DNA of 64,000 bases. Source: Heptranchias perlo. Lineage: Eukaryota. Positions 17,641 to 55,916 of this stretch are shown piece after piece. Each line of letters opens with the position of its first letter. Position 1 is the first letter of the stretch. Below the pieces are notes generated by a model, which saw only the letters and a list, made by a program, of their open reading frames with translations, did not search any database and was not told where the DNA came from. Both the position numbers and the translations under genes were made by a program. Location of the stretch: the NCBI RefSeq assembly GCF_035084215.1, contig NC_090348.1:6076001-6140000 (forward strand), in the 5' to 3' direction.

Positions 17641-17940
17641 AGCACCGATTGGCACCCATTCCCAAAAGAGTGCAGGGTGGCTGATATTGGAAAAGAAAAT
17701 GTCATGGATTTACTTTAGGGGCACTGTCCTGGAAGCTAGAACTAAGGAACCCTGCTGACAGTGAAGAAAGACCTCACATGGTATGGCTGATCGGGAGATC
17801 GCCTATGCTGGAGCTAATTGGAGAGCTGTGGTGTAGCGGACCGGGAGAGCTATGATACACTTATTGCAAAATTTCCTATGGTTTAGATGATCGGGAGGTC
17901 ACCAATGGCATAGCTAGATCTGTTATGGTATAGCTGATCT

Positions 17941-18543
17941 CGGGAGATCACCTGTGGTGTGGCTGATCGGGAGATCACCTGTGGTGTGGCTGATCGGGAG
18001 ATCACCTGTGGTGTGGCTGATCGGGAGATCACCTGTGGTGTGGCTGATCGGGAGATCACCTGTGGTGTGGCTGATCGGGAGATCACCTGTGGTGTGGCTG
18101 ATCGGGAGATCACCTGTGGTGTGGCTGATCGGGAGATCACTTGTGGTGTGGCTGATCGGGAGATCACCTGTGGTGTGGCTGATCGGGAGATCACCTGTGG
18201 TGTGGCTGATCGGGAGATCACCTGTGGTGTGGCTGATCGGGAGATCACCTGTGGTGTGGCTGATCGGGAGATCACCTGTGGTGTGGCTGATCGGGAGATC
18301 ACCTGTGGTGTGGCTGATCGGGAGATCACCTGTGGTGTGGCTGATCGGGAGATCACCTGTGGTGTGGCTGATCGGGAGATCACCTGTGGTGTGGCTGATC
18401 GGGAGATCACCTGTGGTGTGGCTGATCGGGAGATCACCTGTGGTGTGGCTGATCGGGAGATCACCTGTGGTGTGGCTGATCGGGAGATCACCTGTGGTGT
18501 GGCTGATCGGGAGATCACCTGTGGTGTGGCTGATCGGGAGATT
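17941..18543. repeat. 27-bp minisatellite, about 22 near-perfect copies (cgggagatcacctgtggtgtggctgat) with degenerate flanking copies
   Basis: Direct reading; one substitution near 18141; degenerate units extend to ~17779 and ~18625. Confidence 0.97.
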
Positions 18544-19957: not shown

Positions 19958-20632
19958 CTTTTTTTCTATTCGTTCATGGGATGTGGGCGTCGCTGGCGAG
20001 TCCAGCATTTATTGCCCATCCCTAATTGCCCTTGAGAAGGCGGTGGTGAGCCGCCTTCTTGAACTGCTGCAGTCCGTGTGGTGACGGTTCTCCCACAGTG
20101 CTGTTAGGAAGAGAGTTCCAGGATTTTGACCCTGCGACGATGAAGGAACGGCGATATATTTCCAAGTCAGGATGGTGTGTGACTTGGAGGGGAACATGCA
20201 GGTGGTGGTGGTGTTCCCATGTGCCTGCTGCCCTTATCCTTCTAGGTGGTAGAGATCGCGGGTTTGAGAGGTGCTGTCGAAGAAGCCTTGGCGAGTTGCT
20301 GCAGTGCACCCTGTGGATGGTGCACACTGCAGCCACAGTGCGCCGGTGGTGAATGGAGGGAATGTTTCGGGTGGTGGATGGGGTGCCAATCAAGCAGGCT
20401 GCTTTGTCCTGGATGGTGTCGAGCTTCTTAAGTGTTGTTGGAGCTGCACTCATCCAGGCAAGTGGAGAGTATTCCATCACACTCCTGACTTGTGCCTTGT
20501 AGATGTTGGAAAGGCTTTGGGGAGTCAGGAGTTGAGTCACTCGCCACAGAATAGCCAGCCTCTGACCTGCTCTTGTAGCCACAGTATTTATATGGCTGGT
20601 CCAGTTAAGTTTATGGTCAATGGTGACCCTCA
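19958..20632 (-). mobile_element. 3' fragment of LINE family B (CR1/L2-group; ORF2 ends HHLLKGN*)
   Basis: ORF MATRAGQRL...LLKGN and tail gggcaattagggatgggcaataaatgctgg...aatagaaaaaaa. Confidence 0.9.
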
Positions 20633-21034
20633 GAATGGTGTGGTTTTAAGTGCTTTTTGCACTGCTTTACAGAAAGACCAGTGCTATACATGGCCGTAAC
20701 CAAACTTTACTTGTTGGACCGAGACACTGCTCACTTAGTATTTCTACCACTTGTAGATTTTAAAATTTGTTTTAATATACTTTTCTTTAAAAGGAATTGC
20801 TGGATGTGCTTTTATTGGAAAGCCTAGAAGGACAGGGATAGCTTTCTTCCTCCCTCATTGTTATGGTCGATCTCTCTTCAGTAAAGGAAATTAGTCGTGC
20901 TGTATTGATTTTACTTTTCTCTTTGCTCCCTCACTCCCACTGGTCTCCGTAAGCTATGGCACTATCGTGAGCAGGCAGATAACCTCCTTCAACATATTCA
21001 CTAGCGCCAGTGTGACCTGCATGACACGTCGAGG

Positions 21035-22490
21035 GCGCCATAGCCTAGTGGTTATAATACTGGAGCAATAACCCAGAAGACATGGGTTTAAAACTTACTA
21101 TGGCATGTTGTGAAATTGAATTTAATAAATCTAGTAATTAATGGGCTGGCATTAGAAAAAATGACAATGAAGCTGCTGTTTTGTTGTAAAGACCCAACTG
21201 GTTGACTTGATATCCTTCAGGGAAGGGAAACTTCCACCCCTACATGGTCTGGCCTGCACGTGACTCCAGTCAATTGAAGTCAATGGGAATCAGGGGGAAA
21301 ACTCTCCAGTGGCTGGAGTCATACCTAGCACAAAGGAAGATGTTAGTGGTTGTTGGAGGCCAATCATCTCAGCCCCAGGACATTGCTGCAGGAGTTCCTC
21401 AAGGCAGTGTCCTAGGCCCAACCATCTTCAGCTGCTTCATCAATGACCTTCCCTTCATCATAAGGTCAGAAATGGGGATGTTCGCAGATGATTGCACAGT
21501 GTTCCGTTCCATTCGCAACCCCTCAAATAATGAAGCAGTCTGAGCCCGCATGCAGCAAGACCCCGGACAACATCTAGGCTTGGGCTGATAAGTGGCAAGT
21601 AACATTGGTGCCAGACAAGTGCCAGGCAATGACCATCTCCAACCAGGGAGAGTCTAACCACCTCCCCTTGACATTCAACGGCATTACCATCGCCGAATCC
21701 CCCACCATCAACATCTTGGGGGTCACCATTGACTAGAAACTTAACTGGACCAGCCATATAAATACTGTGGCTACAAGAGCAGGTCAGAGGCTGGGTATTC
21801 TGCGGCGAGTGACTCACCTCCTGACTCTCCAAAGCCTTTCCACCATCTACAAGGCACAAGTCAGGAGTGTGATGGAATACTCTCCACTTGCCTGGATGAG
21901 TGCAGCTCCAACAACACTCAAGAACCTCGACACCATCCAGGACAAAGCAGCCTGCTTGATTGGCACCCCATCCACTACTCTAAACATTCACTCCCTTCAC
22001 CACCGGCGCACAGTGGCTGCAGTGTGTACCATCCACAGGGTGCACTGCAGCAACTCGCCAAGGCTTCTTCGACAGCACCTCTCAAACCCGCGACCTCTAC
22101 CACCTAGAAGGACAAGAGCAGCAGGTACATGGGAACAACACCACCTGCACGTTCCCCTCCAAGTCACACACCATCCCGACTTGGAAATATATCACCGTTC
22201 CTTCATCGTCGCTGGGTCAAAATCCTGGAACTCCCTTCCTAACACCACTGTGGGTGAACCTTCACCACATGGACTGCAGTGGTTCAAGAAGGCGGCTCAC
22301 CACCACCTTCTCAAGGGCAATTAGAGATGGGCAATGAATGCTGGCCTCGCCAGCGACGCCCACATCCCATCAACGAATAGTAAAAAAAAAAGTCCCATAC
22401 TATGTGTTTGACTCTTAATGGCCTCACAGCAACTAGAAATGGGAAATAAATGCTGCCTTGTTGGTGTCACCCACATCCTAAGAAAAATAT
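21035..22490 (+). mobile_element. tRNA-headed SINE (21035-21270 and 22391-22490) interrupted by a 5'-truncated LINE family B copy (21271-22390)
   Basis: RT motifs [10 protein letters not shown] and MFADDCTV, poly-A end; the SINE body resumes after the poly-A, with agtc at both junctions. Confidence 0.85.
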
Positions 22491-24800: not shown

Positions 24801-25757
24801 TGAAATGGGAATAGCGCTTAGTGGTGCTGTGGAAAACTGAAATGTCACCATGTTGCTGTCAGGTGATTGCCTGGAAGATGGAATTTAGGCAGGCTTCTGA
24901 TCAAGATAAAGGGAGATTGGGATTCGTGGTCAGTGGTGAATTGTAGATGGTCCTGTACTGCGGAACAGTGCAGCATGGGAATCCTAGGCACCATGGGATG
25001 CTGGGGGGAGTGACTAAGAATTTAGAACTTTTTTGATTTACCAAAGTTTACTATCCTTTTTAAAGATGCAATTAAAATCAGTCTTGTCAATTTTCCAAAT
25101 GTGCCTCCTTTTGCTGCATAGAAAGTTTATCATGAGGGAGGAGAGCAACAACATAGTAAAGGGGAAAATAACAAATAAATGGAAACAGTGAAAATAAAAA
25201 ACGCCAAGGTGGAGAATCCAACTCTCTGTTCAACCCTCTTTTCACATGCAGTATATTATTGGTCTCTGTTTTCAGGTTTTATTGATTCTGTGCTTACACA
25301 AATATCCAGAAATTTCATGGCCCAAAAGGTGGAATTCTGTGGCAGAAAATCCTGAAATGTCGGCAGTCAGCACAGCTGTGTTCTCTACAGAAATTCACAA
25401 AGAGTTAACAGTATGACACGTACTGAAAGTGACATCTACAGCTAGATACAATGGCTGGGAGCATCTGTCACTAAATCTGATTTCATGCAAAATGTCTGTA
25501 ACTATGCAAGTTTTTTTTGTAGTGGAGTTTAGTGTTTTCTTCGCTGAATCCATGCAAACATGGGGAAATTCTGAAGTATAGCTGCTGAGATTGAAATTAA
25601 TTGGAGGAGTTTGCAGAATATGAGGGACCCTGATTTTAGGCCATGCCATGTATTAGATGTTTATAGATGGGGAGAGGAAGCTGTCGTACATTTTTACTGT
25701 CGTATTGTTTTACATGGGCACTGACTTTGTTTCCCGTTCTGTCCCAACAATCTCCAG

Positions 25758-25893
25758 GCCCAGTTTCCTTGCTCACTATGTGGACTAATAGAATCAATAC
25801 AGCAAATTCAAGGAAGCATCAGGAATTTGCTGGTCGTTTGAGTTCTGTTAACAACAAAGCTGAGTTGTACCAGCATCTTAAGGAAGAAAATGG
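25758..25893 (+). CDS. INTS13: INTS13 coding exon: PVSLLTMWTNRINTANSRKHQEFAGRL...HLKEEN(G)
   Basis: ccag|GC acceptor, GG|gtcagt donor, 136 nt, phase 1 to 2; conserved INTS13 C-terminal motif. Confidence 0.95.
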
Positions 25894-26191
25894 GTCAGTA
25901 GTCTTCTCGAGTTTTTGTATATCCCTGCATATGCTTAGTAAGTCTAGGCTATTCATTGCACTGTAATGGCATGGTAAAAAGTTAGATAAAAGCCAGTTAT
26001 TTTCTTTCAAGACTGGTTTTAAAAATTAATCTTGTTTTGATTCATGTTACTGTAATTATATGTAATATTTGTAAGACAGATCTTTGTAGTTCTAATATTT
26101 GTAAGATGTTTGTAGTACAGTAATACTAGTAAGACATTACTTTGTAGTACAGAGTCTCTATATTGGCAAATTGTCTTTTTGTGTGTTATAG

Positions 26192-26231
26192 AATGGATAC
26201 ACATGAAAACGGTAAAGCCAGCAGACAATAA
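26192..26231 (+). CDS. INTS13: INTS13 terminal coding exon: MDTHENGKASRQ*
   Basis: tatag|A acceptor completes the phase-2 Gly codon; ENGKASRQ* matches the recalled human C-terminus; TAA at 26229-26231. Confidence 0.93.
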
Positions 26232-26515
26232 AGAGAAGCTTCAACGCAAGATGTTTCAGAAGCTCCTGGTCAGCTGTAATGCTGTTTGTAAATTAATAAT
26301 TCCCACAAAAGATCTGAGATGTTTTAAGGAATTCAACCTCAGTCTCTCAAAATGCTGCTGTTGAAATGACTTGCAACAAATTGTACAAAGATTACAAGTT
26401 TGTGCTGTGTACGAAGATCAAGAAGAATTTTACTCTTTGTTAAAGTTGGCATTTTCTACTACAAAATACATTGACAATTTTAGACAATATTTACATAAAG
26501 CTTACATTGTTCAAA

Positions 26516-26521
26516 AATAAA
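26516..26521 (+). promoter_or_regulatory. Candidate polyadenylation signal (AATAAA) of INTS13
   Basis: AATAAA about 285 nt after the stop codon in an AT-rich 3' UTR. Confidence 0.55.
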
Positions 26522-26990
26522 AGTTATGTCTCTACACAAATTTCAGTGCTCTACTTATTAAAAATGTTATTCCTGAGTGCTCTAGACACATCCACACAAC
26601 TTATCACGGAATATGGTTCACTGTTCTAATGTATCTAATTTTACCGCTTTGTTATATAAAGTCAGTCAGCCCACCTTTTGTTTCCATTTGTTCTTGGGAT
26701 ATGGTTTGTGCATTTATTGCCCACCTTAGTTGCACTGAGAAGGTGATTTGCAAATTGAGTGACTTGCAGGGCCACATTAGAGGGCATTTATTGTCAACTA
26801 CATTGGTACAGGACTGACGTCATGTGAAGGACATTAATTTCTAAGACAATCCGGCAGCTGTCGTGGTCCTCCAACAAATGACTACATTCAGTCTCACTTG
26901 CCATGGTGGGATTTGAACTGGCAACCTCTAGATTGCTAGTCCAATATAACTGCACTGCTGTACCCAGTGCATGTCTGTTTAACACTGATG

Positions 26991-27155
26991 TGGAGATGCA
27001 GGTGATGGACTGGGGTTGACAATTGTAAACAATTTTACAACACCAAGTTATAGTCCAGCAATTTTATTTTAAATTCACTGGAGATGCCGGTGATGGACTG
27101 GGGTTGACTTTCAAATAAAATTGCTGGACTATAACTTGGTGTTGTAAAATTGTTT
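26991..27155. mobile_element. Second copy of the Penelope-like palindromic element, rearranged
   Basis: Same arms as 3876-4095, with the centre replaced by a duplicate of the 5' segment; flanked by a direct repeat aacactgatg. Confidence 0.7.
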
Positions 27156-27588
27156 AACACTGATGATGCTTTTCTGCACTCCTCAGTAGTCTTAGCAGAT
27201 AGCCAATTCTTTAGTTGTCTGCAGGATGTTACCATACAGTCAGTTAGGCTGATTATAAACATGACTGTTGAATTTGTTCTTCGGCAATATGACATAAGAA
27301 TCCTTTGCCTCCAATACAGACCCACAGAGGAACGGATCAGTGAATCAGCAGTAATTTTACACCATTTAGTATGTGAGCATTCATTGACCTTTTGGCTTGT
27401 GGTACAAGTTTGTTTTATGTGAAAGCCCATGCCTTCTGCCCTAGCAGTGCACGTTTAAGATTCACTTTGTAAATATGTTTGTCTTCTATCCTGATAGATA
27501 ACGCATTTGGCAGTTTCGAAATAATTTAAAGCTCATATAACAAAATAAATCAGATTTTATCAATGTGCATTTTTTGAGGAGGCAGTGG

Positions 27589-28724
27589 TTATTTTTTGGA
27601 TTGCAGCTCATAAGGAGGAGGGAGTTGATATTTTGGTGGCTCGGATTGTAAATTAGGCAGCCTGATGCGGGATGGTGTATTGTGTTGTATGTTACTGGGT
27701 GTTAAGTCTGCTCTGTGCAGTTGATGAGGAAGTTTTACCCACAGCTGCGATGGCGGGGGCACCTCAGGAATGAACATGGGTGGCTTTCTCGGTCTTAGTG
27801 CGTGCATCTCTAAGTGGTGACTACGTGCAGTTGGTCGGTTTTCTTGAAAGCTCAGTACTTCAGAGGGGAGGATCTTTTCTGAGTATCTGCAGAAGCAATA
27901 GATCGTAACTAATAAGGCAATTAGAAGAATAAGAAGCAACACTGTGAGAATGGTAGGCCAGATGGTCGTCAGCAAGTAAGAGCTGTGAGATTGAATGATC
28001 GTAGTACTCAGATCTGCTGTGGGCATTGTAGACAGGCAGGCTCCACCATAAGTGACATTCTCAACTGTTTGAATTCGGTACTCTGGTAACATCGTCTCAA
28101 CAAAAGATGGATGTGCACGGCCATCTGGCAAACGGATTAGTTTGAACAACTTTTCAATAGTACTCGTTGGACATTCCTTTAAAACGCCTTTGCTTGCTGA
28201 ACACAAGGAATTGTTGTACCACGATACTAGTGTGGAACCTGGTTTTATGGAGAAGAGGACAATGTCCTCACTGCTCGAGTCATTCAGATACTTAGCAAGT
28301 TTTTCTAGGAAGTAGACCACTCTTCCTCTATCTCGAAGAAAAGAATTGTAACTGTTTTTTGTTCTGACTGTGTACAAGTGGCAGGGCGTGTAATGTGATA
28401 GCCGGAGTTCAATCACAAAACCTTCTTGAACAACAAGTCCACCTGAATCAGTAGCAGTCAAGACAAATTCTTGTGGTGAGTATTGATAGTCTGTCTCCAG
28501 TGGATACCCAAACAGAGTTTTCCGCGATTGATTAAATCTCACCCAAGACTCTTTTCCTGAAGGGGATCCATCGACTGAAGCTACTGTCAGAGTTAAGTTT
28601 CTGGCATTTCCGTCTTCTTGATCAAAAAATGTGTGTGCAGGTACAGAATAATGAAATCTTTGTCCTACAGTTGCCAAGATGAATTCAATTGGGTTGATTA
28701 CAATTGGAGACTTGTTGGCCTGCC
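27589..28724 (-). CDS. Dystroglycan-like gene, terminal coding exon 5: second cadherin-like domain, SEA module (G|S), TM helix, cytoplasmic tail ending PPKYQLPPPYELQSKK*
   Basis: tttag|GG acceptor, phase 1; TFFDQED, SWVRFN, ATDSGGL, IKPG|STLVSWYNNSL, CP...GAC, TM helix and PPPY all parallel the DAG1 alpha C-terminus and beta subunit. Confidence 0.93.
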
Positions 28725-30512: not shown

Positions 30513-32531
30513 CATTGTACTCTGAGGCAGGTATTTCAAGGGTAGATGAAATCTTCTTTGTGTCCTTGGGGCTCAGACTTTCAATTATAGTTGTTTGAGA
30601 GGAACTTGGAATCTTCGTGAACGTATCCTGAGAAGTCCAACTTTTGAAGGCATGTGTTTCTTGTATTAATACTGAGTGAACTGGTGCTGTAATTGATTGA
30701 CTTGACCAGTATGTGAATACTAGACTTTCGTCAAAACTAAAAGTAGGGATGCTGAGGCTTGACTGGCTGGGTATTAAGATGTTTAATATGCTGGATACTT
30801 GAAACTGTTCTGTGTGATTGTAACTGTCTTGCCAAATGCCAATCTTGTTGACTGACATTGCATTCATTGAATACTGACTGATTTGATGTGTGTTAGTAGA
30901 GGATATTGTGGAATAGAATAAATGTGACCCAAAGGAATGAAACAAACTTTCAGGTAACGGTATGGTCTGTTGCAAAGATGAGATGAAGTATGACAACTCT
31001 GTAGATACAATATAATGGCTAAAAAATGGCTGTGAAGTGGGATATCTTAAGTCCACCTGGGATGAGAATGATGGCATGAGAGATGGTAGGCTATCATTCT
31101 GTGTCATTAAGGTAGTAATAGGCATTCTTGCATTGTCACTGTATGCCTCAAATACACCAACAGATGTTTTTAGCTCATTGGATGGAACTGAAGAGCTGAA
31201 AGTCTCAGTGAAATTAATTGATGGCAGAATATCTGTAAACGAAGGTGGAAAACTGATGGAATCACCCTGGCTGAACTGATTTTTAACTTGCCTGAATGAC
31301 TGTAAACTGGTAAGAGGATCTTGAACTGTGGACAGAAAAGAAAATTCAGGTAATGGAGAAGTAGGAGACATTGTGAAGGTGGACAGCATAAGATCCTTTC
31401 TGACTGATGAGTAGGATGTAACAGTCACAGAAGACCATACGAGTTTGGTGGCTGAGTGAGAGACCAAGAGTGAATATGGTGTGCGATCCACTGCTGTAAG
31501 AGAAGAAGTGATGAACCTTGAGTGGTGTAATAGTATATGGCCATCGATGGATGAATTTAAAGGATTAATAGAGTCCCGACTAGATTGGTTTTCTTGGAAT
31601 GAGTGTGAATACATGGGAATCATTGAATGGGTAGACAGCACTGGATGTTCTTGAAAAGAAATAGAAGGAACGTGTGATTGTTTGATTGATTGCTTTACAA
31701 TTTCTCCAATTGATAGAGAAGATACAGTTTCAAAAGAGTAAAAGAAAATTGAGGTGAGAATCAACTGATCAGAGATGTATGTGGTAGTGAGAAAGTTAGC
31801 TGTTTGTGTGTCAAAAGAGGACAAAATAACTTTATTAGGATAAGAAAAAGATTGTGACTGAGGATAAAACATAGTGCCTGATTTGACAGAATATAAGGTA
31901 GACTCTGAAAGCTTTCTGTCTGAACTAAGTAACAAAATATTTGTAGCCATTAATTCAGGTTTGATTGTATGTACTGAAATGGGTTCTGATGAGCTTTGTA
32001 AGTGTGCTGGTGTACTTAGTGTGCTAGGTGAGATGGTAAAAATGTTGGGTGCTAATAGATAACTTGTGCCAGTAATTTCCTCGCTGCTGCCATTAAATAA
32101 CAAACTTGTTTGAATATCGCTTATATTGGTAAATGCAAACGGTAGGCTTGGTGACATGTCAATTTTCTGTGTCGCATAAAATAAACTTTTCATGGCTCTT
32201 GAAGCTAGCCCTGTTGACCAAAGTGTACTGTCCATTGAGTGGAAAGACAAGTCGTCTTTGGTTAGCTTTATGCTCGAGGCATCTGTGACCAGCATCCCTG
32301 TAGAAAGTGATTTCTCCACGTTGATATATGTTGTCAACTGGGAAATTGGCATAAGGCTACTTGGTAAAGGTGAAGCATCGGAGAACAGCTGGGTGTGTTC
32401 TGACAAAAGGTGTAAAGGACTGACCAGATTGAGACTTGTTTCAACCTTGGCATCTGATTCAGAACTGTATCTTTTGTCATCCATGGTGGATTTGATGAAA
32501 CCAGTGTTGTCTTCAGTTGCTGTATACATCT
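30513..32531 (-). CDS. Dystroglycan-like gene, coding exon 4: 673-codon Ser/Thr-rich mucin-like exon
   Basis: Polypyrimidine tract then aacag|AG acceptor, G|gtaagg donor, 2019 nt open frame, phase 1-1, consistent with both flanking exons. Confidence 0.82.
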
Positions 32532-35172: not shown

Positions 35173-36845
35173 CCAGTGAGGCTTTCTTCTGACCATATCA
35201 ACTTGCTCCTGATCTCTATGCAAGGGTGCAATGCAGATTTGGACCCAGACAATCGATTCTCTTCAACACCTCATACATAGTAATGCAGAATGGAAGTGGT
35301 ATCCCCTGTGCTCTTTCCATCAATATCAGCTTAATTGATGGATTCTTATACTGTTATCCAGTCTATCACCTATTATTTGGAAATGGGTTGACTTAATAGT
35401 TTTGTTAGAAAATGAAAACTAACTGCCCCCTGGACAAGTGGATGCCCTGTCTATGGAAAAGCAAGGTTCTAGAAATATAAATGGAGAGACTGTGATGGCG
35501 GATAAAATTTTAAGTACCATACTTTCTTGGGTAAGTGAAACTTAATTTTGGACAAATACTTTGGATATGGCCTTATGATTGCTCCATACAAGCATTAATT
35601 GTGATGGATTTATCCACTGCATCAAGGTTATTTACATAACGTACTCAGGAAAAACAAGTATGTAATCTTCAAAATTGGCAATTTAATATCACAAAAGACC
35701 ATGCCAACTTTCAAGACTACGTACTTAAAAACAAACGGACAGGAGTAGGCCATTCAGCCCCTCAAGCCTGTTCTGCCATTCAGTTAAATCATGTACCTCA
35801 ATCCCGTTTACCTGCCTTCACTCCATACCCCTTGATACCCATACCTAACAACAATCTATCGATCTCAGTCTTGAAAATTTCAATTGATTCAGCAGCCACA
35901 GCCTTTTGAGGGAGTGAGTTTCCACTACCCTTTGTGTGAAAAAGTGCTTCTTGATTAAACTGAGGATAATGCGCATTATCTGACAGAATAACCTTGATTA
36001 CATCTTCCCCGCTGACAAAAACCCAACTATTGATTTAAAACTGAAACTTTCACAACCACATACAGAAGATGGAGGGCTAGATATAATACAACTGCTCTTA
36101 CAACAGCCATTTTCTGGCTTGGAAGAATCTACTGATCCGAGGCTTCCTTCAGAGTTGAACTCTGGAAAGTATTTTGTTAACATCTTGAAAGCCTAATGCC
36201 AAATTGTTGACATTGGGTTTTAATCTCGGGGATACATTTTTACCAAGATGGATCTATAACTCCGATAAATTTCCAATGATAATGTTTCAATTACTTTATT
36301 CAAAAAGGAAACAAACCTGTTAAACCTACCGGCCATTAGGGGTTTTCTTGAGAATAGGTGGTGGCCGTATTATCTAGTATTGATTGTATTTAAGGCTGCG
36401 ACATTCTTTTGACGGCACTGACAAGATTTGAAACCAGCACTGTTTTGCTCTTGCAATATTTTTCTTTGCAATGCTTCACTGCATATGCTTGGTGTTTTCT
36501 TCTGTACTCTCCCTCAAAAGAAAATGGTATGCTTCCAGAGCAAGGCAGTACGGATAGAAGTTCACATGACTGGCACGTAAACTCTTAATGGGACAGCGGT
36601 TTCTGATAACGTGCCAGGCATTGAGACCCAAGTTTCAAATCCCAGCCTATTACCGACATTTCCTCAGAGGAAAGTTATCCATCGCATGGAGGTGGACATA
36701 CCATCCAGCTCTCTGTCAGCAAGGACTGTCAAAGGGAATGAGGGGAAAAACCGACCCAGCACTGGCTGTTGGTTGAATAAGGAATAGCATCAATTGTGTT
36801 TGTGGAGATGGGTCAAACTGGATTGCCAGATATGGCAGGCGCGAG

Positions 36846-38527
36846 TTTTTTTTTTATTCGTTCACGGGACGTGGGCGTCGCTGGCGAGGCCAGCATTTCT
36901 TGCCCATCCCTAATTGCCCTCGAGAAGGTGGTGGTGAGCCACCTTCTTGAACCGCTGCAGTCCGTGTGGTGACGGTTCTCCCACAGTGCTGTTAGGAAAG
37001 GAGTTCCAGGATTTTGACCCAGCGACAATGAAGGAACGGCGATATATTTCCAAGTCGGGATGGTGTGTGACTTGGAGGGGAACGTGCAGGTGGTGTTGTT
37101 CCCATGTGCCTGCTGCTTTTGTTCTAGGTGGTAGAGGTCGCGGGTTTGGGAGGTGCTGTCGAAGAAGCCTTGGCGAGTTGCTGCAGTGCATCCTGTGGAT
37201 GGTACACACTGCAGCCACAGTGCGCCGGTGGCGAAGGGAGTGAATGTTTAGGGTGGTGGATGGGGTGCGAATCAAGCGGGCTGCTTTATCTTGGATGGTG
37301 TCGAGCTTCTTGAGTGTTGTTGGAGCTACACTCATCCAGGCAAGTGGAGAGTATTCCATCACACTCCTGACTTGTGCGTTGTAGATGGTGGAAAGGCTTT
37401 GGGGAGTCAGGAGGTGAGTCACTCGCTGCAGAATACTCAGCCTCTGACCTGCTCTCATAGCCACAGTATTTATATGGCTGGTCCAGTTAAGTTTCTGGTC
37501 AATGGTGACCCCCAGGATGTTGATGGTGGGGGATTCGGCGATGGTAATGCCGTTGAATGTCATGGGGAGGTGGTTAGACTCTCTCTTGTTTGAGATGGTC
37601 ATTGCCTGGCACTTATCTGGCGCGAATGTTACTTGCCACTTATGTTGTCCAGGTCTTGCTGCATGCGGGCTCAGACTGTTTCATTATTTGAGGGGTTGCG
37701 AATGGAACTGAACACTGTGCAGTCATCAGCGAACATCCCCATTTCTGACCTTATGATGAAGGGAAGGTCATTGATGAAGCAGCTGAAGATGGTTGGGCCT
37801 AGGACACTGCCCTGAGGAACTCCTGCAGCAATGTCCTGGGGCTGAGATGATTGGCCTCCAACAACCACTACCATCTTCCTTTGTGCTAGATATGACTCCA
37901 GCCACTGGGGAGTTTTCCCCCTGATTCCCATTGACTTCAATTTTACTAGGGCTCCTTGATGCCAGGATCGGTCAAATGCTGCCTTGATGTCAAGGGCAGT
38001 CACTCTCACCTCACCTCTGGAATTCAGCTCTTTTGTCCATGTTTGGACCAAGGCTGTAATGAGGTCTGGAGCCGAGTGGTCCTGGCGGAACCCAAACTGA
38101 GCATCGGTGAGCAGGTTATTGGTGAGTAAGTGCCGCTTGATAGCACTGTCGACGACACCTTCCATCACTTTGCTGATGATTGAGTGTAGACTGATGGGGC
38201 GGTAATTGGCCGGATTGGATTTGTCCTGCTTTTTGTGGACAGGACATACCTGGGCAATTTTCCACATTGTCGGGTAGATGCCAGTGTTGTAGCTGTACTG
38301 GAACAGCTTGGCTAGAGGCGCAGCTAGTTCTGGAGCACAAGTCTTCAGCACTACAGCTGGGATGTTGTCGGGGCCCATAGCCTTTGCTGTATCCAGTGCA
38401 CTCAGCCGTTTCTTGATATCACGTGGAGTGAATCGAATTGGCCGAAGACTGGCTTCTGTGATGGTGGGGATATCGGGAGGAGGCTGAGATGGATCATCCA
38501 CTCGGCACTTCTGGCTGAAGATGGTTC
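36846..38527 (-). mobile_element. 5'-truncated LINE family B copy (RT plus 3' tail)
   Basis: ORFs 37671..38501 ([29 protein letters not shown]) and 36910..37602; poly-A end. Confidence 0.92.
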
Positions 38528-38642: not shown

Positions 38643-40225
38643 CTAATAAACTTGTGTTCAGATGAATCGTTGAAAGAGAGCTAAAGGCATTGTAAATATC
38701 CTGGGATTTTGTCATTTTTTGAGGAGAAGCATAGGTATTTGATAGAAACAGCAGAGATCTGAGTATATGATCACCAGAAGCCAATGAATTTACCGTAAGT
38801 GCTGTTGTGGTACCAACAAATATTGAGGAATGGATGGGAGGAGTGCGTAATGGAGAAGTTAGTTTCGTACTGATGACTGATGAATGACTGTAGAGAGTTG
38901 GGAGAGGAAGTAAGTACTTAGGACTATCAGTCATGCTATAACTATGCAGAGCTTTAACTGATGAAGTCTCCACCTTGTAATATTGGTTAGTGCTAGTGAT
39001 GATGGCCAAGACTGTTGGTGCCATTTTATCCAAAATGGGTGTACCAAACGTGTTCAGTGCAGTCAGTAGGGTAGTTTCGTCAAATAGTGATGACATTGAT
39101 GAAGATAGTATGTTTGGGCTGGCAGTAACAGTAAACTGTTCAGTCAGCTGAGGTTGTATGATGGCTATAGAGGAGGTCTGGGTAGCGGAAGTGAGAACTG
39201 TTGGAATTATGCTTTGAATCCCCTTTGTTACAAACTCAGTAACCACTGTTGGAGTAGGTGACAGTTGTGACTGTTGCGCAATTCTGAGAGATGAAGTACC
39301 AAGGAGAAAATAACTTGAGGGTTCAAGCACAGGGAAACTTGGGAACATTGACTCCATCTCTGATTTAGCCAAGAGCACATGTGAAGTTTGTGTGTCTAAT
39401 GACGTTACAGGTTTTGATGGCAGCGTAAATAAGGGTAAAAGTTTGGTCGTTTCTAAAACAGACTTCATTGCAAGTGAGGTTGGTGGTGGGAATGAGAGCA
39501 CAAAGCCAGAGAAACTGCTCAAGTAAATCTCTGTGAAATTAATGGATGCTTTGAGTTGAACAGAAGTGAATGAGGTTCTGAACGGGGAGCTTTGTTGCCT
39601 TTTCGGGGACGTTGGGATGCCTGACGCTGTAGTTTGTACATCCCATCTGTCCTGCTCGGTTGCAGAATCCAGTTTTGAATAGTCTATGTTTGACGTGAAA
39701 GTTTTGGTAAAGATCTGGGTAAGTATTGTAGGCTCAGGTCTGATTAAGTAGGTTGGTTTAGGTGGTGTCATTGCAGGTGTTGGTGAAACCATTAAAACTT
39801 GGCGCCGGTTCCTTTGAAGATGCATGATCTTTTTTCCTTTTCTCAATACCCTCCAGCCTGAAATATGCCATCCTAAATACTGTGAAATATGACCGGAGAA
39901 GACATTATGATTCAAAACCTGACTGAGTTCCTGCAACATCCCAAAGCTCCCGCAGCTGATAGGCCAATAGATTTCTACCGCTTCTCTGTCCGTAGAACTC
40001 CTGTTGCCGGCTTCAGAAGCCAAAATATGGATCATCTTCGGTTTAAGATTCGTCATATCCCTGAATGGGCATAGTGTTAATAAAAATGGATCTGTACGTA
40101 GATACTCAGCCATGGATAGGACGAGAGATATGCGACTGCTCGCTCCTAAAGAGTTGATCTTGGCCTGGAGGATAACACCTGCGTAAACGGTGGGACCATC
40201 TGCTGTACATCCTCTTAAGTGAAAG
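38643..40225 (-). CDS. Dystroglycan-like gene, coding exon 3: S6-like domain, furin site RNRR, start of mucin region
   Basis: ttcag|C acceptor, G|gtaagt donor, 1583 nt, phase 2 to 1; CTADGP..VIL, WPISC and SQYLGWHISGWRV parallel DAG1 CAADEP..VIL, WKLGC and SAQLGYPVVGWHI; followed by ~385 S/T/P-rich residues. Confidence 0.9.
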
Positions 40226-40653: not shown

Positions 40654-40898
40654 TTGTCCGATGTTGGAAAGCGACGGCCTGTTGTGGTGTTCCGTTCGTT
40701 GGTGTTTCGATCTTCGTTCAAAACCAACAGTTGAAAAGTTGTAGAAACTTGGCTTGACTTGTGCTGCATATTTCCTCGAGCTGTCACCTTTATGTTGTAT
40801 CCTCCAGCATCGTTGCTTGTTGGAAGGCCTTGAATGGTCCTTGTTTTTGAGTTGAATTCCAGCCATTTGGGTAGAATGGTGGCACCAACTAATGAGAC
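40654..40898 (-). CDS. Dystroglycan-like gene, coding exon 2: VSLVGATILPKWLEFNSKTRTIQGLPTSNDAGGYNIKVTAR...FPTSD(N)
   Basis: Found in a different frame from the listed ORF 40621..40866; accag|GTC acceptor, AA|gtagga donor, 245 nt, phase 0 to 2; LPxWL.F....T.xGLP...D.G matches DAG1 [24 protein letters not shown]. Confidence 0.88.
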
Positions 40899-43730: not shown

Positions 43731-46700
43731 TTTATTATTATTCGTTCATGGGATGAGGGCGTTGCTGGCGAGGCCGGCATTTATTGCCCATCCCTAATTG
43801 CCCCTGAGAAGGTGGTGGTGAGCCGCCTTCTTGAACTGCTGAAGTCCGTGTGGAGAAGATTCTCCCACAGTGTTGTTAGGAAGGGAGTTCCAGGATTTTG
43901 ACCCAGCGACGATGAAGGAACGGCGATATATTTCCAAGTCGGGATGGTGTGTGACTTGGAGGGGAACGTGCAGGTGGTGTTGTTCCCATGTAGCTGCTGC
44001 TCCTGTCATTCTAGATTTGAGGAGGTCGTGGGTTTGGGAGGTGCTGTCGAAGAAGCCTTGGCGAGTTGCTGCAGTGCATCCTGTGGATGGTACACACTGC
44101 TGCCACAGTGCGCCGGTGGTGAAGGGAGTGAATGTTTAGAGTAGTGGATGGGGTGCCAATCAAGCGGGCTGCTTTGTCCTGAATGGTGTTGAGCTTCTTG
44201 AGTATTGTTGGAGCTGCACTCATCCAGGCAAGTGGAGAGTATTCCATCACACTCCTGACTTGTGCCTTGTAAGTGGTGGAAAGGCTTTGGAGAGTCAGGA
44301 GGTGAGTCACTCTCCACAGAATACCCAGCCTCTGACCTGCTCTTGTAGCCCTAGTATTTATATGGCTGGTCCAGTTAAGTTTCTGGTCAATGGTGACCCC
44401 CAGGATGTTGATGGTGGGGGATTCGGTGACGGTAATGCCGTTGAATGTTAAGGGGAGGTGGTTAGACTCGCTCTTGTTGGAGATGGTCATTGCCTGGCAC
44501 TTGTCTGGCACGAATGTTAATTGCCACTTATCAGCCCAAGCCTGGATGTTGTCCAGGTCTTGCTGCATGCGGGCTCGGACTGCTTCATTATTTGAGGGGT
44601 TGCGAATGGAACTGAACACTGTGCAATTGTCAGCAAACATTCCCATTTCTGACCTTATGATGGAGGGAAGGTCATTGATGAAGCAGCTGAAGATGGTTGG
44701 GCCTAGGACACTGCCCTGAGGAACTCCTGCAGCTATGTCCTGGGGCTGAGATGATTGGCCTCCAACAGCCACTACCATCTTCCTTTGTGCTAGGTATGAC
44801 TCCAACCACTGGAGAGCTTTCCCCCTGATTCTCATTGACTTCAATTTTACTAGGGCTCCTTGGTGCCACACTCGGTCAAATGCTGCCTTGATGTCAAGGG
44901 CAGTCACTCTCACCTCACCTCTGGAATTCAGCTCTTTTGTCCATGTTTGGACCAAGGCTGTAATGAGGTCTGGAGCTGAGTGGTCCTGGCAGAACCCAAA
45001 CTGAGCATGTTATTGGTGAGTAAGTGCCGCTTGATAGCATTGTCGACGACACCTTCCATCACTTTGCTGATGATTGGGAGTAGACTGATGGGGCGGTAAT
45101 TGGCTGGATTGGATTTGTCCTGCTTTTTGTGGACAGGACATACCTGGGCAATTTTCCACATTGTCGGGTAGATGCCAGTGTTGTAGCTGTACTGGAACAG
45201 CTTGGCTAGAGTCGCAGCTAGTTCTGGAGCACAAGTCTTCAGTGCTACAGCCGGGATGTTGTCAGGGCCCATAGCCTTTGCAGTATCCAGTGCACTCAGC
45301 CGTTTCTTGATATCATGTGGAGTGAATCAAATTGGCTGAAGACTGGCTTCTGTGATGGTGGGGATATCGGGAGGAGGCTGAGATGGATCATCCACTGGGC
45401 ACTTCTGGCTGAAGATGGTTGCAAACGCTTCAGGCTTATCTTTTGCACTCACGTGCTGGACTCCGCCATCGTTGAGGATGGGGATGTTCACGAAGCCTCC
45501 TCCTCCTGTTACTCGTCCACCACCATTCATGACTGGATGTGGCAGGACTGCAGAGCTTTGATCTGATCCATTGGTTGTGGAATCGCTTAGCTTTGCCTAT
45601 AGCATGTTGCTTCCGCTGTTTTAGCTTGCATGTAATCCTGTATTGTACCTTCACCAAGTGGGCAACTCATTTTTAGGTACACCTGGTGCTGCTTCTACAC
45701 TCCTCATTGAACCAGGGTTGATCCCCTGGCTTGTTGGTAATGGTAGAGTGAGGAATATGCCGGGCCATGAGGTTACAGATTGTGCTGGAATACAATTCTG
45801 CTGCTGCTGATGGCCCACAGTGCCTCATGGATGCCCAGTTTTGAGCTGCTAGATCTGTTCTGAATCTATTCCATTTAGCACGTTGGATGGTGTTCTCAGT
45901 GTGAAGACAGGACTTTGCCTCCATAAGGACTTGTACGGTGGTCACTCCTACCGATACTGTCATGGACAGATGTATCTGCGACAGGTAGATTGGTGAGGAC
46001 GAGGTCAGTCGGTTTTTCCCTCGTGTTGGTTCGCTCACCACCTGCCGCAGTCCCAGTCTGGCAGCTATGTCCTTCAGGACTTGGTCAGCTGTGGTGCTAC
46101 TGAGCAACTCTTGGTGATGGACTTTGTACTGTGGGTGGGGGACTTCATTTTGTGCTCTTACTACCCTGAGTGCTTCCTCCAAGTGGTGCTCAACATGGAG
46201 GAGGACTGATTCATCAGCTGAGGGTGGGTGATAGGTGGTTTCCTTGCCCATGTTTGACCTAATATCGTGAGATTTCATGGGGTCCAGAGCCCATGTTGAG
46301 GACTCCCAGGGCCACTCCCTCCTGACTGTATATCACTGTACCGCCACCTCTGGTGGGTCTGTCCTGCCTGTGGGACAGGACATACCCAGGGATGGTGATG
46401 GAAGAGTCTGGGACATTGGCAGAAAGCTATGATTCTGTGAGTATGGCTATGTCAGGCTTGACTAGTCTGTGGGACAGCTCTCCAATTTTGGCACAAGTCA
46501 AAGATGTTGTTGAGGACTTTGCAGGGTCAACTGGGCTTGGTTTGCCTTTGTCGTGTCCGGTGCCTAGTGGCCCGTCTGGATTTATTCTTATTATGACTTT
46601 TTGTAGTGGGATTGTACAACTGAGTGGCTTGCTAGGCCGTTTCAGAGGGCAGTTAAGAATCAATCACATTGCTGTGGGTCTGGAGTTACACATAGTAACT

Positions 46701-50159: not shown

Positions 50160-52070
50160 GAGAATCATAGAAAGGTTACAGCACAGAAGGAGGCCATTCA
50201 GCCCATCGAGTCCGCGTGGGCTCTATGCAAGAGCAATCCAGCTAGTCCCACTCCCCCACCCTATCTCCGTAGTCCTGCAATTTTTTTCCTTTCAAATACT
50301 TATCCAGTTCCCTTTTGAAAGCCATGATTGAATCTGCCTCCACCACCCCCTCGGACAGTGCATTCCAGATCCTAACCACTCGCTGTGTAAAAAAGTTTTC
50401 CCTCATGTCACCTTTGGCAAAAGAACCAATCACCTTAAATCTATGTCCTCTGGTTCTTGACCCTTCTGCCAATGGGAGCAGTTTCTCTCTATCTACTCTG
50501 TCCAGACCCTTCATGATTTTGAATACCTCTATCAAATCTCCTCGCAGCCGTCTCTGTTCCAAGGAGAACAACCCCATCTTCTTCAGTCTATCCACGTAAC
50601 AAAAGTCCCTCATCCCTGGAATCATTCTAGTAAATCTCTTCTGCACCCTCTCTAAGGCCTTCACATCTTTCCTAAAGTGCAGTGCCCAGAACTGGACACA
50701 ATATTCCAGTTGTGGTCGAACCAGTGTTTTATAAAGATTCATCTTGACTTCCATACTTTTGTACTCTATGCCTCTATTTATAAAGCCCAGGATCCCGTAT
50801 GCGTTTTTTAACTGCTTTCTCAACCTGCCCTGCCACCTTCAACAATTTGTGCAGATAAACCCCCAGATCTCTTTGTTCCTGTACCCCTTTTAGAGTTGTG
50901 CCCACTAGTTTATATTGCCTCTCTTTGTTTTTCCTACCAAAATGTATCACTTCGCATTTTTCTGCGTTAAATTTCATCTGCAACGTGTCAGCCCATGCCA
51001 CCAGCCTGTCTATATCCTCTTGAAGTCTATCACTATCCTCCTCGCTGTTTACTACCCTTCCCATGTTTTGTGTCACCTGCAAATTTTGAAATTGTGCCCT
51101 GTACACCCAAGTCCAAGTCATTAATATATATCAAGAAAAGCAGTGGTCCCAGCACCGACCCCGGGGGAACACCACTGTACACCTCCCTCCAGTCCGAAAA
51201 ACAACCGTTCACCACTATTCCCCATTTCCTATCCCTTAGCCAATTCTGTATCCATGTTGCTACTGCCCCTTTATTCCATGGGCTGCAATCTTCATGATAA
51301 GCCTACCGTGCGGCACTTTATCAAACGCCTTTTGAAAGTCCACATACACCACATCAACTGAAGTGCCCTCATCTACCCTCTCTGTTACCGCATCAAAAAA
51401 ATCTATCAGGTTAGTTAAACACGATTTGCCTGTAACAAATCCATGCTGCTTTCCCCAATCAATTCATACTCATCCAAGTGACTGTTAATTCTGTCCAAGA
51501 TTATCGTTTCTAAAAGTTTCCCCACCACTGAGGTTAAACAGACTGGCCTATAATTGCTGGGTTTATCCTTACACCCTTTTTTGAACAAGGGTGTAACATT
51601 TGCAATTCTCCAGTCCTCTGGCACCACCCCCGTATCTATGGATGTTTGGAAGACTATGGCCAGCACCTCTGCAATTTCCACCCTTACTTCCCTCAGCAAC
51701 CAAGGATGCATCCCATCCGGACTGGGTGACTTATCTACTTTAAGTACAGCCAGCCTTTCTAGTGCCTCTTCTTTATCAATTTTTAGCCCATCCAGTATCT
51801 CAACTACATCTTCCTTTTTTGTAAAGAAAGAGACTCTGGCAGCATCTTCTTCCTTTGTATAGGCAGATGCAAAGTACTCATTTAGTACCTCAGCCATCCC
51901 CTCTGCCTTCATGAGTAGATCTCCTTTATGGTCCCTAATCGGCCCATCCCTCCTCTTACTACCCGTTTACTGTTTATATGCCTGTAGAAGACTTTTGGAT
52001 TCCCTTTTCATGTTGGCCGCCAGTCTATTCTCATATACTTTCTTTGCCCTTGCTATTTTCTTTTTCACTT
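50160..52070 (-). mobile_element. 5'-truncated CR1 LINE
   Basis: ORFs 51415..51912, 50774..51121 and 50242..50823 carry CR1 RT and C-terminal motifs. Confidence 0.92.
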
Positions 52071-52072
52071 CC

Positions 52073-55000
52073 ATAGAATCATAGCATGGTTATAGCACAG
52101 AAGGAGGTCATTCGGCCCATTGAGCCTGTGCCGGCTCTTTGTAACAGCAATCCAGTTAGTCCTGATCCCCTGCTCTTTCCCCATAGCCCTGCAATTTATT
52201 TCCCTTCAAGTATTTATCCAATTCCTTTTTGAAAGCCACGATTGAATCTGCTTCCACCACCCGTTCAGGCAGCGCATTCCAGATCATAACGACTCACTGC
52301 GTAAAAAAGTTTTTCCTTGGTTTTTTTGCCAATTACCTTGAATCTGTGTTCTCTGGTTCTCGACCCTTCTGCCAATGGGAACAGTTTCTCTTTATTTACT
52401 TTATCTAAACCCTTCATGATTTTGAACACTTCTATCAAATCTCCTCTCAACCTTCTCTGCTCTGAGAACAACCCCAGCTTCTCCAGTCTATCTACATAAC
52501 TGAAGTCCCTCATCCCTGGAACTATTCTAGTAAATCTTTTCTGCACCCTCTCTAAGGCCTTCACATCCTTCCTAAAGAATTAGGACACAATGCTGCAGTT
52601 TTGGCCAAACCAGTGTTTTATAAAGGTTCAACATAACTTCCTTGCTTTTATACTCTATGCCTCTATTTCTAAAGCCCAGAATCCTGTATGCCTTTTCAAC
52701 CTGTTCTGCCACTTACAAAGATTTGTGCACATATACCCTCAGGTCTCTGTTCCTGCACCCCCTTTAGAATTGTACCATTTAGTTTATATTGTCTCGCCTC
52801 ATTTTTCCTGCCAAAAGGTATCACTTCGCACTTCTCTGAGTTAAATTTCATCTGCCATGTGTCTGTCCATTCCACCAATGTCCTCTTGAAGTCTATCTCT
52901 ATCCTCCTCACTGTTTATTACACTTCCAAGTTTTGTGTCATCTGCAAATTTTGAAATTGTTCCTTGTACACCCAAGTCCAAGTCATTAATATATATCAAA
53001 AAAAGCAATGGTCCCAGCACCGACCCCTGGGAAACACCACTGTATATCTTCCTCCAGTCCAAAAAAACAACCATTCACCACTACTCTCTGTTTCCTGTCA
53101 TTTATCCAATTTTGTATCTATGCTGCTACTGCCCCTTTTATTCCATGGGCTTCAATTTTGCTGACAAGCCTATTATGTGGCACTTTGTCAAACACTTTTT
53201 GAAAGTCCATATACACCACATCAGCCACATTGCCCTCATCAACCCTCTCTGTTACCTCATCAAAAAACTCAATCAAGTTAGTTATACACGATTTGCCTTT
53301 AACAAATCCGTGCTGGCTTTCCTCAGTTAATCCACACTTGCCCAAGTGACTATTAATTTTGTTCTGGATTATCATTTCTAAAAATTTCCCCACCACCGAG
53401 GTTAAACTGACTGGCCTGTAGTTGCTGGGTTTATCCTTACACCCTTTTTTGAACAGGGGTGTAACATTTGCAATTCTCCAGTCCTCTGGCACCACCCCCA
53501 TATCTAAGGAGGATTGGAAGATTATGGCCAGAGCCTCTGCAATTTCCATCCTTACTTCCCTCAGTAACCTAGGATGCATCCCATCGGACCGGGTGACTTA
53601 TCTACTTTAAGTACAGTCAGCCTTTCTCTTTATCGATTTTTTAGCCCATCCAGTATCTCAACTATATCTTCCTTTACTGAGACTGTGGCAGCATCTTCTT
53701 CCTTGTTAAAGACAGATGCAATGTACTCATTTAGTACCTCAGCCAGGCCCTTTGCCTCCATGCGTAGATCTCCTTTTTGGTCCCTAATCGGCCCCACCCC
53801 TTCTCTTACTACTCATTTACTATTTATATGCCTATTGAAGACTTTTGGATTCCCTTTTATATTGGCCACCAGTCTATTCTCTTACTCTCGCTTTGCCCCT
53901 CTTATTTCTTTTTTCATTCTCCTCTGTACTTTCTATATCCAGCCTGGTTCTCACTTGTATTATCAACTTGACATCTGTCATACGCCCCCTTTTTCTGCTT
54001 CATCTTATTCTCTATCTCTTTCATCATCCAGGGAGCTCTGGTTTTAGTTGCCCTACCTTTCCCCCTTGTGGGAATGTACATAGACAGTACCCGAACCATC
54101 TCCTCTTTAAAGACCGCCCATTGTTCGATTACAGTTTTGCCTGCCGATCTTTGCTTCCAATTTATCCGGGCCAGACCCGTTCTCAACTTACTGAAATTGG
54201 CCCTCCTCCTTTAAGTATTTTTACTCTAGATTGCTCCTTGTCCTTTTCTATAACTAATCTAAACCTTATGATACTACGATCACTGTTCCCTAAATGTTCC
54301 CCCACTGACACTTGCTCCACTTGGCCCACCTCATTCCCCAGGACTTGATCTAACAATGCGTCCTTCCTCGTTGGGCCGGAAATATACTAATCAAGAAAGT
54401 TCTCCTGAACACACTTCAGAAATTCCTCCCCCTCTTTTCCCTTTACACTATTACTGTCCCAGTCTATATTAGGGTAGTTGAAGTCCCCCATTATCACTAT
54501 TCTATAGTTCTTGCACCTCTCTGTAATTTCCCTGCAAATTTGCTCCTCTATATCCTTCCACTAGTTGGTGGCCTATAGAATTCACCCAGTAGTGTAATGG
54601 CGCCTCTATTGTTTCTTAACTCTAACCAAATAGATTCTGTCCTTCACCCCTCAAGTACATCCTCTCTCTCCAGCACTGCAATATTCTCCTTGATCAATAC
54701 TGCCACCCCCCCTCCTTCTTTCCCTTCCCTATCTTTCTGAACACTGTGTATCCAAGAATATTTAATACCCAATCCTGTCCTTTTTTGAGCCAGGTCTGTT
54801 ATCACCACAACATCATATTCCCATGTGGCTATTTGCCCCTGCAGCTCACCAACATTATTTACCACACTTTGTGCGTTTACACACATGCACTCTAAACCAG
54901 TCTTAGACCTTCTCGTATTCTCTGTCTGTCTGATCCCACCTAATACTGTACTATTTCTTACTCCAGTGCTATCTGTCTCTCCCAATTCTTTGTGCACCTT

Positions 55001-55545
55001 GTATCTCCTTTCTAATGCTACATCCTGGTGCCCACTCCCCTGCCAAATTAGTTTAAACGCCCCCCACGGCACTAGTGAGCCTCCCGGCGAGGACATTGGT
55101 CCCAGCTCGGTTGAGGTACAACAAGTCCGTCTTGAACAGGTCCCTCCTGTCCTAGATCTGGTCCCAATGCCCCAAGAATCTGAAGCCCTCCCTCCTGCAT
55201 CATGCCTCTAGCCACACATTAACCTGTCTCATCCTACTATTCCTACACTCACTGGCGCATGGCACTGGGAGTAATCCAGAGATTACTACTTTTGAGGTCC
55301 TGCTTTTTAACTTCCTCCCTAGCTCCTGAAACTCTAACTGCAGGACCTCAACCCTTTTCTTTCCTATATCTTGATTCCCACATGGACCTCGACATCTGGC
55401 TGTTCCCCCCCCCCCCCCACAGAATGTTCTGCGCTCTCTCCGTGATGTCCTTTACCCTGGCACCAGGGAGGTAACACACCATGCGGGACTCACATTGGCG
55501 GTTACAGAAACACCTGTCTGTCCCCCTGACTATCGAATCCCCTGT
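52073..55545 (-). mobile_element. Long CR1 LINE (part of ORF1 esterase, APE, RT, tail), directly abutting the previous copy
   Basis: LECMCVNAQSV...YDVVVIT and GGGVAVLIKE (APE); RT ORFs 53118..53579 and 52841..53074; tail at ~52075. Confidence 0.92.
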
Positions 55546-55643: not shown

Positions 55644-55916
55644 CTTGTATTGGTCTATTGGGCCATAAAAAGCAAGCGGTGGTACAGGGTAATAAAATAT
55701 CTTTCCTGCTCTGGCGATTGCGTCTGGAATTCCCCGATAGATCCTCACCTCCCCCGGGAGGAAAGTGGTGCTGGCCGAGTACGGCTGGTTGGTAACAGGG
55801 GTAGGGTCAGACAGTGCGATGAAGAAGCCCGTTGCCCCCGCCAACACCAACAACAAAGGCAGGTAGCTGAGCGCACCACTCCGCAGCCTGCCCCAGGCTC
55901 TGGCGGGGCTCGCCAT
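55644..55916 (-). CDS. Dystroglycan-like gene, coding exon 1: signal peptide plus start of Ig/cadherin-like domain (MASPARAWG...GIPDAIARAGKIFYYPVPPLAFYGPIDQYK)
   Basis: ATG in strong Kozak context (acgATGG); hydrophobic LPLLLVLAGATG; GIPD..A..G..F...P resembles DAG1 GIPDGTAVVGRSFRVTIP; AAG|gtaagg donor, phase 0. An upstream in-frame ATG at 55964 is also possible. Confidence 0.85.

Follow-up and report, generated by a model that had tools for sequence, protein, structure and literature searches.

A spliced second dystroglycan gene beside INTS13 in the shark Heptranchias perlo, likely older than the vertebrate genome doublings

The stretch of the Heptranchias perlo genome analyzed here (C27:6,076,001-6,140,000; 64,000 nucleotides, hereafter the window) carries on its minus strand, at 55916-27589, a second dystroglycan-like gene that we name DAG1L. 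We read it as a second dystroglycan gene, intact and spliced, that likely diverged from DAG1 ahead of the vertebrate genome doublings and whose product is predicted to be a long-stalked matrix receptor of the dystroglycan type, and we consider this reading, taken as a whole, to be probable. Textbooks treat dystroglycan as a single gene, and DAG1 anchors muscle. DAG1L is a real, overlooked dystroglycan subfamily, for which a search of open full-text papers returned no published study.

The DAG1L gene has five coding exons with canonical splice sites throughout and an open frame of 5256 nt (1751 codons), built with orthologue proteins as a guide. Exon 1 (55644..55916, minus strand like the others) holds the ATG, a predicted signal peptide (hydrophobic residues 15-37) and the start of the IG1 domain, ending at a phase-0 intron after Lys91; tblastn of gar-like, turtle and sturgeon orthologues matches 55751-55620. 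Exon 2 (40654..40898), likewise found by orthologue tblastn, encodes the remainder of IG1. Exon 3 (38643..40225) encodes an S6-like domain, a furin-type RNRR (residues 311-314), an SPTP motif and the first half of a Ser/Thr mucin region, whose second half lies in the 673 open codons of exon 4 (30513..32531), 70% identical to a sawshark model. Exon 5 (27589..28724, from its acceptor at 28724 to the stop codon at 27589-27591) encodes the IG2 domain, a SEA module with KPG/S (1534-1537), a transmembrane helix (~1622-1655) and a 99-residue tail with PPKY and PPPY. Beyond it lies a transcribed 3' UTR (27128..27588), given as far as contigs reach; contigs continuous with exon 5, or beside it, end at 27128-27151 in all four runs.

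DAG1L is spliced, and the exon 1-2 and 2-3 joints were seen in a related shark about 96% alike, in contigs from public runs that we guessed to be RNA, none being recorded as such. The loose contig ends at the exon 2 acceptor equal the 3' end of exon 1 at 29 of 30 letters in three of four runs, and exon 2 is joined to exon 3 in two of four, with the exon 3 acceptor (40225) observed as a transcript joint. Contigs stop at the borders of exons 4 and 5; those of the related shark start at 30511 and 30513, the exon 4 border, carrying extra unaligned letters. The listed joints, from tables shortened by repeats, include none for intron 3 or 4.

An earlier note on this DNA had placed the gene tail-to-tail with INTS13, with stop codons about 1.36 kb apart, and this is borne out: INTS13 (plus strand) and DAG1L face each other with 1357 bases between stops. 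The last two coding exons of INTS13 occupy 25757..26231 (stop 26229-26231), and a transcript contig extends to 27015. Its penultimate exon (25760-25894) matches the solved INTS13 protein (E 3e-22), the family matches ten places on C27:6,034,380-6,101,888, and splicing at a GT..AG joint (25892/26191) appears in four of four runs; a 1431-aa open frame in INTS13 was not reproduced on re-check. The INTS13 contigs (to 27015) and the DAG1L contigs (from 27128) come to about 110 bases of each other, in the area of a short inverted repeat-like stretch of very high repeat depth at about 26984-27160. Within an INTS13 intron, a 27-base minisatellite (17940-18542; 22 copies, 99% match) opens long frames on both strands. 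Reverse-transcriptase fragments, which we take from their sequences to be LINE-type, occupy introns of both genes at 36800-38525, 44011-45326, 20022-22324 and 50242-55207.

The domain order of the predicted protein (signal-IG1-S6-furin site-mucin-IG2-SEA-membrane helix-tail) is that of the dystroglycan family. Pfam hits in the last exon are DAG1 (E 2e-11) and He_PIG, solved beta-dystroglycan matches it too (E 2e-21), and the top fold matches of its model (mean pLDDT 71) are the dystroglycan chains of the dystrophin complex. The S6 region scores weakly and under the cut-off on Pfam a_DG1_N2 (E 0.03) and had no usable match in the ESM Atlas; the head as a whole aligns to that of DAG1, furin and Thr-Pro motifs included. 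Intron 1 aligns with the start of the large exon of shark DAG1, that is, with the IG1 intron, which one study describes as universally conserved in dystroglycans (PMC5216574). An arthropod-style doubled IG2-SEA was ruled out, since DAG1L has one module only.

The dystroglycan furin site is given as R-x-RRQ followed by Thr-Pro-Thr (PMC4582122). In DAG1L, RNRR is followed by QVLMVSPTP, and the shark site, RNRRQVLMVSPTP, thus keeps the basic residues with Ser for the first Thr, showing SPTP plus a one-residue insert where TPTP is expected. The stalk behind it spans about 1050 residues, 38% of them Ser, Thr or Pro, and is Ser-rich and poor in Lys and Arg. Across gene models of chimaera and gar, mucin length varies widely (gar 842-1611 aa), hinting at alternative splicing of the exons for the stalk. 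At the SEA site (IKPG/STLV) the basic residue sits one place earlier than in the published consensus; Ser164, Cys185 and Cys230 of exon 5 are invariant in an alignment with DAG1 and fly dystroglycan. The tail ends PPKYQLPPPY, where the terminal dystrophin-binding site of the family reads YRxPPPY, and is without RKKRK and KG.PIIFADE, motifs of ordinary dystroglycans from cnidarian-type sequences to mammals; apart from its end it scores 3 bits on a DAG1 tail profile, on which ordinary dystroglycans reach 28-234.

The earlier note had suggested looking beyond one shark lineage, and protein searches recovered DAG1L orthologues in chimaera, sharks, gar, bowfin, sturgeons, coelacanth, turtles, lizards and birds. 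Among 3579 candidates of 663-2000 aa, 52 matched: 45 vertebrate orthologues (37-83%; sawshark, sturgeons, paddlefish, turtles, lizards, a snake and birds), six fly dystroglycans and one unrelated protein. Among 3090 candidates of 207-662 aa, 22 of the 23 matches were orthologues, including horn shark, chimaera, coelacanth and a dolphin, and gar and bowfin came from a search of representatives. No teleost, amphibian, lungfish, crocodilian, marsupial, monotreme or cyclostome DAG1L was named among the matches of these word-limited searches, many of which are unnamed, and the best 150 of 3355 representative matches held none from amphioxus, hemichordates, echinoderms or cyclostomes.

The processing and binding motifs are shared to different degrees across this range. 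Among 50 non-mammal proteins, PPxY is found in 49 and the Gly/Ser site in 48. Of 44 orthologues that cover the region, 28 have the strict basic site RxK/RR, and 15, among them coelacanth, gar, bowfin, turtles and several birds, have R.R..[ILV]..TPT, presumably close to the POMGNT2 motif R-x-R-x-x-I-x-x-T-P-T.

Because the furin, Thr-Pro, SEA Gly/Ser and PPxY sites are kept around a mucin of 1050 residues, DAG1L likely works as a long-stalk dystroglycan, with its processing and binding predicted as follows. By likeness to DAG1 (PMC4582122, PMC8478517), the precursor would enter the secretory path, furin would remove the IG1-S6 head at RNRR, and the Thr-Pro sites behind the cut would take O-mannose glycans, possibly matriglycan. 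The stalk, six times as long as that of DAG1, may hold these glycans off the membrane. The SEA module is expected to self-cleave at Gly1536/Ser1537, yielding alpha and beta chains that remain associated, and the two PPxY motifs of the tail could bind WW-domain proteins, such as dystrophin or utrophin.

A protein of dystroglycan descent could instead have become a membrane mucin that serves as spacer or barrier, is released at the SEA site and has neither matriglycan nor a dystrophin link, and such a change would fit either origin of the gene. The Ser-rich, Lys/Arg-poor stalk, unlike that of DAG1, is consistent with this, as are the names of some orthologues in databases ('mucin-like'), the loss of most conserved dystroglycan tail motifs and the lizard proteins, which have ATPR or ATPG in place of TPTP. 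However, orthologues from chimaera to birds retain the IG1-S6 head, the basic site and, behind this site, the Thr-Pro motif, and PPxY is nearly invariant outside mammals. We regard the mucin role as possible but doubtful.

The earlier note had interpreted the gene as a retained 2R ohnologue of DAG1, and it is here that our analysis departs from it: protein trees point to a DAG1L/DAG1 duplication that probably preceded the vertebrate doublings. A site-mixture tree (33 proteins, 563 columns) groups DAG1L with Lineus longissimus XP_064632762.1, a nemertean protein (100/99, stem 0.77), and vertebrate DAG1 with both hagfish copies (100/99), leaving DAG1L outside. The grouping with Lineus is unchanged in a tree of 54 proteins and is recovered from each half of the protein alone (N-terminal 97/98, C-terminal 99/97), although for the N-terminal tree the program warns of long branches coming together. 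These trees leave aside fragments, mammalian models and multi-repeat proteins, and most of their invertebrate rows are unnamed. With Lineus present, an AU test rejects DAG1L plus vertebrate DAG1 (p 0.003). Once Lineus is removed, the test still rejects three nested placements (p 6e-5, 0.004 and 0.004), and DAG1L as sister to all vertebrate DAG1 passes (p 0.23 and 0.18); the stem that the two then share measures 0.03-0.06, and the one of DAG1 alone 0.43-0.52. The free tree without Lineus puts DAG1L among protostomes, probably wrongly; the deep dystroglycan tree is poorly resolved, with amphioxus pulled to the root.

Simulations argue in the same direction. C60 versions underestimated long branches and were replaced by a calibrated simulator, which assumes a stationary model. 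Under its long-branch null, none of 34 sets (34 evaluated of 60 made) reaches the observed gain of 26.6, the highest being 8.3, and none of 80 ohnologue-like sets has a shared stem of 0.059 or less.

Other comparisons with the Lineus protein are mixed. Its tail scores 18.2 bits on the DAG1L tail profile, against 5.2 for the next non-vertebrate, and of 80 columns diagnostic for DAG1L it matches 13, with 6 of 51 in the runner-up. Hemichordate and amphioxus dystroglycan give the DAG1L head higher scores than Lineus does, and a count of vertebrate-specific residues is uninformative (4 vs 5). The Lineus protein itself scores 133 bits on Pfam DAG1; its C-terminal part finds only dystroglycan, sarcoglycan and cadherin clusters in the ESM Atlas, and a metagenome scan with the protein gave 74 pattern matches and no relative. 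It is the sole invertebrate member found, lies on a long branch, and could be a diverged ordinary dystroglycan. Multi-repeat proteins of cnidarian type were tried as members and rejected, their tails scoring at most 2 bits on the DAG1L profile; one was dropped from the trees as its branch was too long. Also seen were numerous giant proteins in which 6-27 IG2-SEA modules stand in tandem and the tail is not of dystroglycan type; the one named is from an octocoral. Two Saccoglossus dystroglycan models lie on scaffolds that are both 197,249 long and are probably tandem copies of the ordinary type.

The chromosomal setting is where an ohnologue reading draws its strength. The earlier note had asked whether ITPR2 and sarcospan follow beyond the window, and both do: C27 carries, in order, INTS13 (+), DAG1L (-), ITPR2 (+; its coding part starts 44 kb beyond the window, best match ITPR2), sarcospan (-, 6.512 Mb) and a Hairy-orange gene (+, 6.673 Mb). 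Of the suggested link with sarcospan, closeness on C27 stands (about 380 kb), with nothing beyond proximity. On C20, a Hairy-orange gene lies at 47.57 Mb, ITPR1 at 47.9-48.0 Mb and DAG1 at 51.97 Mb. From their sequences we take the Hairy-orange genes of C27 and C20 to be BHLHE41 and BHLHE40, respectively. Order and relative orientation are common to DAG1L-ITPR2-Hairy-orange and DAG1-ITPR1-Hairy-orange, and each of C27 and C20 has a gene of the Piccolo/Bassoon family, Piccolo and Bassoon not being told apart. The proposed paralogy between this block and the DAG1 chromosome is thus upheld by the ITPR2/ITPR1, Hairy-orange and Piccolo/Bassoon pairs. The CACNA1D/1C pair, also cited in the earlier note, finds no counterpart on C27: the L-type calcium channel and SIKE/FGFR1OP2 families match on C20, C21 and C30 and have no match on C27. 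The SIKE/FGFR1OP2 genes lie at C21:3.46 Mb and C30:6.33 Mb; as they are absent from C27, the head-to-head INTS13-FGFR1OP2 pair that we assume for human is absent in the shark. DAG1L exon 5 has two matches in the genome, DAG1L and DAG1, from 19 candidates, and no third dystroglycan-like gene was found in the genome or between the window end and ITPR2.

On this basis DAG1L could be an ohnologue of DAG1 from the first or second round, with very fast evolution immediately after the doubling, its grouping with Lineus reflecting convergence of fast, mucin-expanded dystroglycans. In favor of such an origin are the shared paralogon, the membership, in which all named DAG1L-type proteins but one come from jawed vertebrates, and the sister placement, which passes once Lineus is removed. 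Set against this, DAG1L shares almost none of the long stem leading to DAG1 and both hagfish copies, the nested placements are rejected, and both protein halves and the tail point to Lineus. Moreover, DAG1 sits 4 Mb from ITPR1, so the match between C27 and C20 is chromosome-scale and not gene-to-gene, and the L-type calcium channel and SIKE/FGFR1OP2 families have no match on C27. Paralogon position cannot date a gene pair, because two older linked genes can be kept reciprocally. We therefore judge a doubling-born DAG1L to be unlikely and favor the older duplication, under which DAG1 and DAG1L would have been neighbors on a single pre-vertebrate chromosome, one copy of which retained DAG1 and another DAG1L once the doublings had taken place, mimicking an ohnologue pair.

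A recent, shark-only duplicate, retrocopy or pseudogene of DAG1 is extremely improbable: the low apparent depth in the runs that might suggest it is a measure unable to rank genes, whereas four coding introns, an open frame, splicing and the identities, about 30% with DAG1 of the same shark and 39-62% with orthologues from chimaera to birds and mammals, mark DAG1L as an old paralogue.

The phrase 'lost in human', with which the earlier note described the mammalian fate of the gene, appears too simple, judged from mammalian database models rather than from the human locus. Cluster look-ups and the search of shorter candidates show mammalian DAG1L as shortened models of fin whale, a dolphin and macaque, plus a primate-type frame of 291 aa on 175 contigs that stops directly after the membrane helix. 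PPxY occurs in none of eight mammal-type proteins (three assigned by likeness only), in contrast to the other vertebrates, and both mammalian models that have a head, automatic models in each case, lack the stretch with the furin and Thr-Pro sites. At its start the fin whale model carries an RNA-recognition-motif piece, probably a retrocopy that the gene caller joined to it. Conserved columns are avoided by the changes between primate-type and cetacean sequences (4/74 vs 31/158, p 0.003), and five within-order mammal pairs, with small counts, show no such avoidance (p 0.31-0.94). This contrast between and within orders indicates that DAG1L was constrained into early placentals and then seems to have decayed; in placental mammals it appears to have been under early constraint, to have lost its tail motifs and to be decaying.

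It is tempting to speculate that bilaterians had two dystroglycan lineages predating the protostome-deuterostome split. In sharks, non-teleost bony fish, reptiles and birds, the long-stalked one might be an additional carrier of matriglycan and an anchor for the dystrophin family; it would have been stripped of its tail and be on its way out in placental mammals, where the relic beside INTS13 may in some primates still encode a tailless IG2-SEA protein. We offer this broader picture tentatively, and as a whole it is less likely than not.

Beyond its history, the gene may be of practical use. The matriglycan sites of dystroglycan are treated as unique to it, the O-mannosylation consensus being 'found exclusively in alpha-DG' in mammals (PMC8478517), and a conserved paralogue with the same processing sites would be a natural second substrate for testing recognition by LARGE and POMGNT2. 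DAG1L would also bear on dystroglycan studies that use chick or reptile models and would count as one more late gene loss of mammals; it shows, too, how paralogon position can mimic an ohnologue pair.

Second vertebrate dystroglycan genes are not new as such. They are described in teleosts (Dag1a/Dag1b) and cyclostomes, and the passages considered from three studies name none in cartilaginous fish, reptiles or birds (PMC4582122, PMC5216574, PMC8478517). The second hagfish copy groups with DAG1 and keeps an ordinary tail; DAG1L does neither. Entries in RefSeq and UniRef called 'dystroglycan 1-like', 'mucin-3A-like' and 'mucin-17-like' are DAG1L orthologues, so the gene is already annotated automatically in many genomes, and UniRef labels several orthologues simply 'Dystroglycan 1', hiding the paralogy.

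With vertebrate DAG1, DAG1L shares domain order, the position of the IG1 intron, the Gly/Ser site, two SEA cysteines and PPxY near the end. It differs in its separate locus, three extra introns, length (1751 vs 888 aa), Ser-rich stalk (about 1050 vs about 165 residues) and a tail without RKKRK and KG.PIIFADE, and the folded parts are 26-32% identical. The Lineus protein ('mucin-2-like', 2182 aa) resembles DAG1L in its IG1-S6 head and basic site, in a Ser/Thr stalk of great length, in SPQ within IG2 and in the end of its tail, PPSYRLPPPY. It is unlike DAG1L in having two IG2-SEA modules and a basic juxtamembrane stretch in the tail, and the two proteins are about 30% identical.
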